Source of the DNA: a phage
Reading direction: 5' to 3' (one strand)
Length of the DNA: 64,000 bases
Sequence record: PZ452596.1
The translations under genes and the position numbers were made by a program. Numbering within the stretch: the stretch's first letter is position 1; every line of letters starts with the position of its first letter. The notes beneath the pieces were generated by a model. It saw only the letters and a program-made list of their open reading frames with translations. It did no database searches and was not told the origin of the DNA. Below are positions 37,311 through 38,138 of the stretch, piece after piece.

Positions 37311-37386
37311 TGGTCGAGGCAGTAGGGATCGAACCTACGACCCAGGACTTAGAAGGTCCTTGCTCTTCCTTCTGAGCTATGCCTCG
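37311..37386 (-). tRNA. tRNA-Arg (anticodon UCU)
   Basis: Hand fold: acceptor CGAGGCA/TGCCTCG, anticodon loop CTTCTAA, T-arm GTAGGTTCGATCCCTAC, encoded CCA. Confidence 0.85.
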
Positions 37387-37390
37387 GATT

Positions 37391-37465
37391 TGGCGGACGT
37401 GATAGGATTCGAACCTATAACCAATCGCTTAACAGGCGATCGCTCTGCCATTGAGCTACACATCC
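37391..37465 (-). tRNA. tRNA-Asn (anticodon GUU)
   Basis: Hand fold: acceptor GGATGTG/CACGTCC, anticodon stem ATCGC/GCGAT with loop CTGTTAA, T-arm ATAGGTTCGAATCCTAT, CCA. Confidence 0.8.
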
Positions 37466-37469
37466 AAAT

Positions 37470-37556
37470 TGGTGGGGAGTGATGGAGTCGAACCACCCGA
37501 GTCGCAATGACAATGGATTTACAGTCCACACCGCTACCTCTACGGGATAACTCCCC
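37470..37556 (-). tRNA. tRNA-Tyr (anticodon GUA), long variable arm
   Basis: Hand fold: acceptor GGGGAGT/ACTCCCC, anticodon loop CTGTAAA, variable arm GTCATTGCGACTCG, T-arm GGTGGTTCGACTCCATC, CCA. Confidence 0.8.
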
Positions 37557-37565
37557 TAATTAATT

Positions 37566-37640
37566 TGGTGGCCCTGGGTGGAATTGAACCACCATCTGGC
37601 GATTATGAGTCGCTTGCTTGAACCTTCCAGCTACAGGGCC
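37566..37640 (-). tRNA. tRNA-Ile (anticodon CAU, lysidine-type reading AUA)
   Basis: Acceptor GGCCCTG/CAGGGCC; anticodon stem-loop GCGACTCATAATCGC as in E. coli tRNA-Ile2; T-arm GGTGGTTCAATTCCACC; CCA. Confidence 0.8.
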
Positions 37641-37641
37641 T

Positions 37642-37717
37642 TGGTGCTGATTGACGGAATCGAACCGCCGACCTTCTCATTACAAGTGAGTTGCTCTACC
37701 TACTGAGCTAAATCAGC
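37642..37717 (-). tRNA. tRNA-Thr (anticodon UGU)
   Basis: Acceptor GCTGATT/AATCAGC; anticodon loop CTTGTAA; T-arm GGCGGTTCGATTCCGTC; CCA. Confidence 0.85.
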
Positions 37718-37722
37718 AAAAC

Positions 37723-37812
37723 TGGCGGAGGCGATAGGATTTGAACCTATGAGTCGCCGGAGCGACTGCCGGTTTTCAAGACCGGTGCATTAAACCACTC
37801 TGCCACGCCTCC
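37723..37812 (-). tRNA. tRNA-Ser (anticodon UGA), long variable arm
   Basis: Acceptor GGAGGCG/CGCCTCC; anticodon stem CCGGT/ACCGG with loop CTTGAAA; T-arm ATAGGTTCAAATCCTAT; CCA. Confidence 0.85.
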
Positions 37813-37814
37813 AG

Positions 37815-37888
37815 TCTCCATACAAGGATTTGAACCTTGGACCTCCTGATCCCAAATCAGGCGCTCTACCAAACTGAGCTACACGGAG
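37815..37888 (-). tRNA. tRNA-Pro (anticodon UGG), no encoded CCA
   Basis: Acceptor CTCCGTG/TATGGAG (two G-U pairs); anticodon stem CCTGA/TCAGG with loop TTTGGGA; T-arm CAAGGTTCAAATCCTTG. Confidence 0.8.
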
Positions 37889-37898
37889 TAAATTAAAT

Positions 37899-37972
37899 TG
37901 GAGCGGATAATGAGAATCGAACTCACATCATCAGATTGGAAGTCTGAGGTAATGCCATTATACGATATCCGC
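37899..37972 (-). tRNA. tRNA-Gly (anticodon UCC)
   Basis: Acceptor GCGGATA/TATCCGC; anticodon stem TCAGA/TCTGA with loop CTTCCAA; T-arm TGAGTTCGATTCTCA; CCA. Confidence 0.85.
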
Positions 37973-37977
37973 AAATT

Positions 37978-38064
37978 TGGTGCGAGAAGTGGGACTCGAA
38001 CCCACAAGGAAATCATTCCGCAGCATTTTAAGTGCTGTGCCTTTACCAATTTGACCATTCTCGC
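37978..38064 (-). tRNA. tRNA-Leu (anticodon UAA), long variable arm
   Basis: Acceptor GCGAGAA/TTCTCGC; anticodon stem CAGCA/TGCTG with loop CTTAAAA; T-arm GGGTTCGAGTCCC; CCA. Confidence 0.85.
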
Positions 38065-38065
38065 G

Positions 38066-38138
38066 CTGGGAATAAAGGACTCGAACCTTTGCATCTAGCA
38101 GTCAAAGTGCTATGCCTTACCAACTTGGCTAATTCCCA
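38066..38138 (-). tRNA. tRNA-Gln (anticodon UUG), no encoded CCA
   Basis: Acceptor TGGGAAT/ATTCCCA; anticodon stem TAGCA/TGCTA with loop CTTTGAC; T-arm AAAGGTTCGAGTCCTTT; 1 nt from tRNA-Leu. Confidence 0.85.

Follow-up and report, generated by a model that had tools for sequence, protein, structure and literature searches.

Results

The DNA analyzed here is a 64,000-nucleotide stretch of phage sequence (record PZ452596.1; hereafter, the window), and its element of interest is a tRNA gene cluster at positions 37311 to 38138. ARAGORN, run over the whole 64-kb window, calls ten contiguous tRNA genes at this locus, all on the minus strand, and no others. Starting at 38138 and ending at 37311, the order is Gln(UUG), Leu(UAA), Gly(UCC), Pro(UGG), Ser(UGA), Thr(UGU), a tRNA with a CAU anticodon, Tyr(GUA), Asn(GUU), and Arg(UCU). 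The Rfam model RF00005 recovers the same ten genes, and nothing else in the window, at its gathering threshold of 29 bits, so that all ten score as members of the tRNA family. Nine of them reach 59-74 bits, with E values of 1e-10 to 1e-14; the exception is tRNA-Tyr with 30.2 bits. Ten covariance-model matches within 828 bp and none in the rest of the window are far beyond chance. An earlier reading made from the letters alone (the sequence-only reading) had proposed ten contiguous minus-strand tRNAs in this order, and both programs agree with it, including the Tyr and Asn genes, each of which is called by ARAGORN and passes the Rfam threshold.

Over the window, the sequence matches Enterobacteria phage RB27 (KM607000 / NC_025448), a member of the genus Tequatrovirus, with 100% identity, and precisely these ten tRNAs, with rnaD and rnaC after them, are already annotated in the GenBank record of that phage. 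The RB27 genome announcement of 2015 counts 10 tRNAs in this phage, as well as 10 in RB3/5/6/7/9/10, 9 in RB68, and 8 in RB33/55/59 (PMC4293622). Given this identity, the annotation, and the published count, the cluster is already in the public record; it has been annotated, counted, and described for sister phages, and it is not new.

The six genes at the upstream end of the cluster are 96-100% identical between RB27 and T4 (NC_000866). tRNA-Gln (38065..38138; Rfam 66.0 bits) agrees with T4 at 73/73 aligned positions, tRNA-Leu (37978..38064; 59.3 bits) at 87/87, tRNA-Gly (37899..37972; 63.3 bits) at 73/74, tRNA-Pro (37814..37888; 66.8 bits) at 74/74, tRNA-Ser (37723..37812; 62.6 bits) at 87/87, and tRNA-Thr (37642..37717; 72.9 bits) at 73/76. 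Both tRNA-Leu and tRNA-Ser have the long variable arm. The remaining four genes are of another kind. The CAU tRNA (37566..37640; 59.9 bits; "Met" according to ARAGORN) agrees with the T4 Ile gene at 47/72 positions and with its T2 counterpart at 75/75, and the T2-type tRNA-Arg (37311..37386; 65.8 bits) agrees with T4 at 48/70 and with T2 at 76/76. tRNA-Tyr (37470..37556; 30.2 bits) and tRNA-Asn (37391..37465; 74.1 bits) have no T4 counterpart; tRNA-Tyr matches T2 at 86/87 and T6 at 85/87 positions, and tRNA-Asn matches T2 at 75/75.

Reading of the gene ends shows an encoded CCA in eight of the ten genes. It is missing from Gln and Pro alone, and the Gln-Leu and Pro-Ser junctions are only 1 and 2 nt long, on both of which points the sequence-only reading was right. 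The discriminator G of tRNA-Gln is followed by a single C and then by position +1 of tRNA-Leu; the discriminator A of tRNA-Pro is followed by CU and then by position +1 of tRNA-Ser. Another 1-nt gap separates the CCA of tRNA-Thr from the CAU tRNA. In the alignment, tRNA-Ser of RB27 ends in an encoded GCCA (37723-37726), whereas T4 has G-UAA and no CCA at this place. The T4 Ile gene also lacks CCA, whereas the T6 copy of the same Ile gene has it, as does the CAU tRNA of RB27. The need for host 3' trimming and CCA addition therefore varies among close relatives. Classical work on T4 established that its tRNAs are expressed as polycistronic and dimeric precursors, which are matured by host enzymes. 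By analogy to T4, whose junctions are identical, host RNase P and 3' processing enzymes would release the RB27 tRNAs from precursors that are polycistronic and dimeric (Gln-Leu, Pro-Ser, and Thr-Ile), and the host CCA-adding enzyme would finish Gln and Pro.

In RB27 and T4, the locus lies on the same strand and at the same position, with e.8/rnaC/rnaD to one side and trna.2-ipI to the other, and the two phages share the gene order, the Gln-Leu and Pro-Ser junctions, and the downstream rnaD and rnaC. The T4 annotation agrees with the sequence-only reading that this phage encodes eight tRNAs without Tyr and Asn, and the reference thus does not hold the same ten genes. Between its Ile and Arg genes, T4 carries segB, which encodes a GIY-YIG homing endonuclease. 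Upon alignment, near-complete identity of RB27 and T4 covers the sequence upstream of Gln, all genes down to Thr, and 12 nt at the start of the CAU tRNA. Real similarity ceases beyond these 12 nt and resumes only shortly after the 3' end of tRNA-Arg, from where rnaD and rnaC align again. The T4-divergent cassette hence spans 37311..37628 on the minus strand. It consists of the four RB27/T2-type genes CAU-Tyr-Asn-Arg in about 320 bp, versus Ile-segB-Arg in about 1.07 kb in T4, which has another Ile(CAU), another Arg(UCU), and segB in place of Tyr and Asn. No segB open reading frame (ORF) was found in the RB27 cassette; its spacers measure only 4-9 nt and therefore leave no room for an ORF.

This alignment contradicts one element of the sequence-only reading, namely, its view of Tyr and Asn as genes added between the Ile and Arg genes known from T4. 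The CAU and Arg genes flanking them in RB27 differ from the T4 genes, so that the change is not an insertion between conserved flanks but the replacement of a whole cassette, and simple insertion is ruled out. More broadly, one might still imagine an ancestor of the T4 type with eight tRNAs, to which Tyr and Asn were added between Ile and Arg, considering that the T4 reference has eight tRNAs and neither of these two and that tRNA blocks clearly move between phage families, with Tyr homologs occurring in rV5-, FelixO1-, and T5-like phages. However, neither RB27 flank is a T4 gene, the T4 slot holds a mobile homing endonuclease gene whose product has its preferred target in the tRNA-Asn gene (PMC2330249), and the distribution of the two arrangements, described below, points the other way. 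We consider such a gain very improbable.

We identify the cluster as the T-even (Tequatrovirus) tRNA region in its segB-less T2/RB3-type allele. The tRNA regions of T2L, RB1, and RB3 have been sequenced, and all of them lack segB (Brok-Volchanskaya et al. 2008, PMC2330249); T2/T2L, RB1, and RB3 share with RB27 the locus and the 3' cassette, and the T2L region was reported to encode Met, Tyr, Asn, and Arg tRNA genes (PMC2330249). In the T2 genome as deposited, an ORF takes the place of the RB27 tRNA-Thr, which gives T2 nine tRNAs versus ten in RB27; RB3 and siblings nearly identical to it are likewise listed with 10. T6, at the same locus, is a hybrid composed of a T4-type Ile, Tyr, segB, and a T4-type Arg gene, its Ile and Arg genes being identical to those of T4. 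It lacks Pro, Ser, and Asn but keeps segB beside Tyr and can amplify the Tyr-segB unit. Since RB27 has no segB, SegB-driven amplification in cis is unavailable to this phage. The segB gene in a T6 record (AP018814) is labeled "serine recombinase"; it is 96.5% identical to T4 segB, and the label is an annotation error.

The preferred 27-bp SegB site lies inside the tRNA-Asn gene of T2L, and in crosses of T4 with T2L, segB homing excludes a T2L region of about 1250 bp with the four tRNA genes named above (PMC2330249). This site was published as a figure, and we judged RB27 by the identity of its Asn gene to that of T2 and by the presence of the cleavage motif. The two Asn genes are 100% identical, and that of RB27 carries GGTTCGAATCC, conforming to the SITE-seq-derived SegB motif RAWTSGAAC. 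Of the 12 matches to this motif in the 64-kb window, 4 lie in RB27 tRNA genes (Asn, Thr, and Gly, each in the region of the T loop) and in rnaC. Identity to the T2 gene together with the motif makes RB27 a natural SegB target allele, and by its sequence, the phage carries an intact tRNA-Asn target for SegB homing.

In the phage collection searched, 398 of 856 matching records covered at least 80% of the ten-tRNA block, while T4 segB was covered to at least 80% in 126 of 183 matching records. The segB-less arrangement is thus commoner, roughly 3-4 times, and T4 represents the minority arrangement. At an identity of at least 95%, the RB27-type CAU tRNA was found in 584 records, tRNA-Tyr in 509, some rV5-like phages included, and tRNA-Asn in 352. 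Other genera of the Tevenvirinae, namely, Karamvirus, Kanagawavirus, and Klebsiella T4-likes, also have Tyr and Asn tRNAs in their tRNA regions. Shigella phage Sf22 and its type have the same ten genes in the same order as RB27, with about 98% identity. Sf22 and several relatives have 11 tRNAs, with an additional His(GUG) gene placed between Asn and Arg (Sf22 locus 1265-1340), which RB27 lacks; RB27 therefore does not have the largest cluster of this kind.

Related tRNA genes were also seen outside of this group. In the rV5-like phages FV3, FFH2, and phiWec193, a block (Pro ... Thr-CAU-Tyr) is about 90% identical to RB27, with tRNA-Tyr alone reaching up to 96.6%. This block, shared between RB27 and Vequintavirus, implies that tRNA blocks are exchanged between unrelated phage families. 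The Tyr-Asn pair was matched at ~84% in E. coli plasmids of ~106-115 kb (e.g., NZ_AP022542 and NZ_CP019027), where the matching genes are annotated as tRNA-Tyr and as tRNA-Asn, along with tRNA-OTHER; these large plasmids are probably phage-plasmids with their own tRNA arrays. Klebsiella phage Roth01 (locus 1676-1760) and phage tuntematon (locus 395-479) have 85-nt tRNA-Asn(GUU) genes with a long variable arm, a class II-like scaffold that is unusual for Asn.

The CAU tRNA is named Met by ARAGORN, by the RB27 GenBank record, and by most related records (a few say Ile), and the corresponding gene of the T2L region was also called Met (PMC2330249). However, its best matches in E. coli are genes annotated as tRNA-Ile, with 76% identity to K-12 ileX and 82% to a lambdoid-prophage tRNA-Ile versus 60% to metT, and its anticodon stem-loop (GCGACUCAUAAUCGC) is identical to that of ileX. 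Its acceptor stem, GGCCCUG/CAGGGCC, has C4:G69 and C5:G68, the pairs by which E. coli TilS tells tRNA-Ile2 from tRNA-Met (PMC11947777); metT has U4:A69 and A5:U68. These features led us to reject an elongator Met identity, and an initiator identity is ruled out by G1:C72 and the lack of a GGG/CCC anticodon stem. The gene is almost certainly a tRNA-Ile2, predicted to carry lysidine and to read AUA, and the assignment to Ile in the sequence-only reading is thus favored over the Met label.

The low Rfam score of tRNA-Tyr raises the question of whether this gene encodes a functional tRNA. A decayed pseudogene or a miscall, such as a tRNA-Sec-like nonfunctional element, could explain why it only just exceeds the threshold and why, in E-value mode, the tRNA-Sec model gives it a slightly better score (34.4 bits) than the tRNA model does. 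Moreover, minimum free energy (MFE) folding of tRNA-Tyr was no better than that of shuffled sequences (z = -0.9) and recovered neither the D arm nor the variable arm, and in several deposited genomes, the homolog is unannotated or labeled tRNA-OTHER or pseudo. The tRNA-Sec reading was rejected, given that its score falls below that model's own threshold of 47 and that the anticodon is GUA. We then considered 12 Tyr homologs from T-even, rV5-like, T5-like, FelixO1-like, Phapecoctavirus, Certrevirus, Karamvirus, Kanagawavirus, Klebsiella T4-like, and Enterococcus phages, which span 8 or more phage lineages. In this alignment, every one of the 23 cloverleaf pairs is a standard pair in 100% of cells, 14 of the 23 with compensatory changes, which none of 500 shuffles matched. 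The GUA anticodon, discriminator A73, G1:C72, and long variable arm are those of bacterial tRNA-Tyr, and the 97.7%-identical T6 tRNA-Tyr was seen by northern blotting and rescues infection (PMC13096335). Covariation strongly supports the cloverleaf, and on these grounds, we take tRNA-Tyr to be a real tRNA and regard decay or miscalling as extremely improbable.

The borderline score of tRNA-Tyr is due to its atypical D arm. In this family, the D stem consists of 3 bp, CCG/CGG (CUG/CAG in the T5-like member), which follow a connector of 4-5 nt (4 nt in RB27) where 2 nt are canonical. The D-stem register proposed by ARAGORN pairs in 88.9% of cells, compared to 100% for the CCG/CGG register, and was rejected, a preference that rests on few informative sequences and one compensatory change. 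The variable arm, GUC-AUUGC-GAC, is the same in T6, whereas host tyrU has GUC-ACA-GAC. In the T5-like phage GSP044, tRNA-Tyr is about 84% identical to that of RB27, and the variable arm is identical. It might be that the 4-5 nt connector between the acceptor and D stems of this pan-phage tRNA-Tyr is an adaptation affecting nuclease recognition.

Directly downstream of tRNA-Arg, the RB27 GenBank record annotates rnaD (species 2 small stable RNA; 37189..37309, minus strand), which is similar to T4 rnaD, and then rnaC (species 1 small stable RNA; 37045..37183, minus strand), which is near-identical to T4 rnaC; their window coordinates equal the RB27 record positions minus 30322. Near its 3' end, rnaC has a T-arm-like element (CCGGGTTCGAATCCCGG), which is perfect (CCGGG-TTCGAAT-CCCGG at 37054-37070) and also fits the published SegB cleavage motif. 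A terminator-like hairpin with a T run (36971..36994, minus strand) closes the tRNA/rnaD/rnaC unit. This hairpin region is part of a 36-nt direct repeat with 97% identity between its copies at 36427-36462 and 36962-36997, each of which is a minus-strand terminator-like hairpin followed by a T run. The copies bracket RB27_136, a 153-aa ORF (36467-36928, minus strand) belonging to PHROG 2280, which T4 does not have here and which resembles a gene cassette that was placed between two copies of a regulatory stem-loop. Immediately upstream of tRNA-Gln lies RB27_137, a 171-aa ORF (38225-38740, minus strand) of PHROG 2290; it is absent from T4 at this place and has an equal-length coding sequence in T2. 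Searches of Pfam with RB27_136 and RB27_137 gave no matches, and both PHROGs are families of unknown function.

Discussion

Taken together, we conclude with high confidence that the window carries the RB27 tRNA cluster in its T2/RB3-type segB-less form, a single minus-strand unit of ten tRNAs followed by rnaD, rnaC, and a terminator, whose products would serve both translational demand and the replenishment of tRNAs lost to host tRNases, and that the corresponding slot of T4 is held by segB. T4 lacks Tyr and Asn because this slot is taken by segB and by the Ile and Arg alleles that flank it. Loss of the two genes in the T4 lineage, upon takeover of the slot by the segB cassette, is the most economical explanation.

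With respect to demand, codon usage in the 58 window ORFs of at least 120 aa was compared with that in only 41 annotated E. coli K-12 genes. Eight of the tRNAs read A-ending codons (CAA, UUA, GGA, CCA, UCA, ACA, AUA, and AGA), which the phage uses 1.6 to 9.5 times as often as E. coli, with ratios of 9.5 for AGA, 5.4 for AUA, 4.0 for GGA, 3.7 for UCA, 3.6 for ACA, and 2.8 for UUA. We had expected that demand would explain Tyr and Asn poorly, and this expectation was wrong, as these two are the most enriched amino acids in the phage relative to the host (Tyr 1.76-fold, the highest ratio, and Asn 1.68-fold, the second highest), with UAU used 2.6-fold and AAU 3.5-fold. These ratios support the classical supplementation role for all ten tRNAs; eight of them would serve A-ending codons favored by the AT-rich phage, and Tyr and Asn would serve its two most overused amino acids.

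It could be argued that nothing else is needed and that Tyr and Asn are kept purely for codon and amino acid usage, without any role against tRNases. Besides the usage ratios, this is backed by the observation that rescue from retron-Eco7 succeeds even with a tRNA-Tyr of host sequence, if strongly expressed, which implies that supply matters (PMC11555353). Yet T4, which is similarly AT-rich, grows without Tyr and Asn tRNAs and is more sensitive to the Septu defense system, whereas T2, which has tRNA-Tyr, is resistant; a T6 mutant with a deletion of the tRNA region is likewise more Septu-sensitive. Furthermore, the slot gathers tRNAs with GUN anticodons (Tyr, Asn, and His), which are known tRNase targets. 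We therefore find it doubtful that demand is the sole reason for keeping these genes. Demand and antidefense explanations are not exclusive, and both can hold.

Evidence for the second role comes from work on related phages. Septu (PtuAB) cuts tRNA-Tyr in the variable arm, and T4, devoid of tRNA-Tyr, is sensitive to this system, T6 is intermediate, and T2 is resistant (Chihara et al. 2026, PMC13096335). Infection was rescued by overexpression of T6 tRNA-Tyr or by its SegB-driven amplification, and deletion of the T6 tRNA region raised Septu sensitivity (PMC13096335). The T6 tRNA-Tyr is itself cleaved by Septu (PMC13096335), which means that dosage matters. The same supply logic applies to the tRNA-Tyr of T5 and SP15 in the presence of retron-Eco7 (Azam et al. 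2024, PMC11555353). With its 85/87 match to T6 and a variable arm as in a T5-like phage, the RB27 tRNA-Tyr belongs to the phage tRNA-Tyr family shown to rescue infection. Tyr and Asn are thus likely to replenish, in addition, tRNAs destroyed by host tRNases, Tyr by analogy to T6 facing Septu and Asn judging by the specificity of PARIS and its nuclease AriB.

The AriB cut in host tRNA-Asn falls between positions 40 and 41 (UAAUC|C), beside the motif U36-A-A-U39 (PMC12409363). The RB27 tRNA-Asn has UAAGC|G versus UAAUC|C in host asnT, differing at positions 39 and 41, and the anticodon arm of its tRNA-Thr has UAAUG|A versus UAAUC|A in host thrU. Both phage tRNAs hence carry substitutions at or near the AriB 40|41 site or its motif, relative to the host targets. 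T5-family phages, with tRNAs that neutralize retron-Eco7 and PARIS (PMC11555353, PMC12409363), resemble RB27 in having tRNAs for Tyr, Asn, and Thr(UGU), the host versions of which are attacked by tRNases; however, the T5 family is unrelated to RB27 and has another gene order, and RB27 lacks tRNA-Lys, the main AriB target. Evasion of AriB by the RB27 tRNA-Asn is a lead only. GUN-anticodon tRNAs (Tyr, Asn, and His) constitute the family that carries queuosine and are also targeted by colicin E5-type nucleases. It is a tentative and, in our estimation, rather unlikely idea that the slot between the CAU and Arg genes is an anti-tRNase island of GUN-anticodon tRNAs (Tyr and Asn, with His in relatives) that stand in for host tRNAs cut by defense nucleases, in which the RB27 tRNA-Asn, with G39 and G41 for U39 and C41 of the host, would be an AriB/PARIS-resistant replacement, the first to be shown in a T-even phage.

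Several points weigh against the overall reading given here. The order of events, loss in T4 versus gain in RB27, rests on homing biology and prevalence rather than on phylogeny. The unpromising MFE fold of tRNA-Tyr and the small host gene set behind the usage ratios belong here as well. A scan for sigma-70 promoters upstream of tRNA-Gln returned nothing convincing, with 2 sites versus 4.5 expected. As to the protective roles, the single copy of tRNA-Tyr in RB27 may give partial protection only, and rescue of the T5 type depends on the promoter (PMC11555353). The host-like UAAUCC is found in several Asn tRNAs of other phages, and the idea of evasion by the RB27 tRNA-Asn concerns two base differences only.

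The Met label on the CAU tRNA seems to be an annotation error repeated systematically in hundreds of T4-like genomes. In this region, the atypical member of the group is T4, the phage that textbooks use as the reference. Its cluster of eight tRNAs reflects occupation by segB, and "extra" tRNAs in its relatives are therefore not to be read as gains. tRNA-Tyr and tRNA-Asn fit both of the debated roles of phage tRNAs, translational demand and replacement after destruction by host defense. RB27 thereby represents a convenient natural segB-free comparison to T4, which has neither Tyr nor Asn, and to T6, which combines Tyr with segB.

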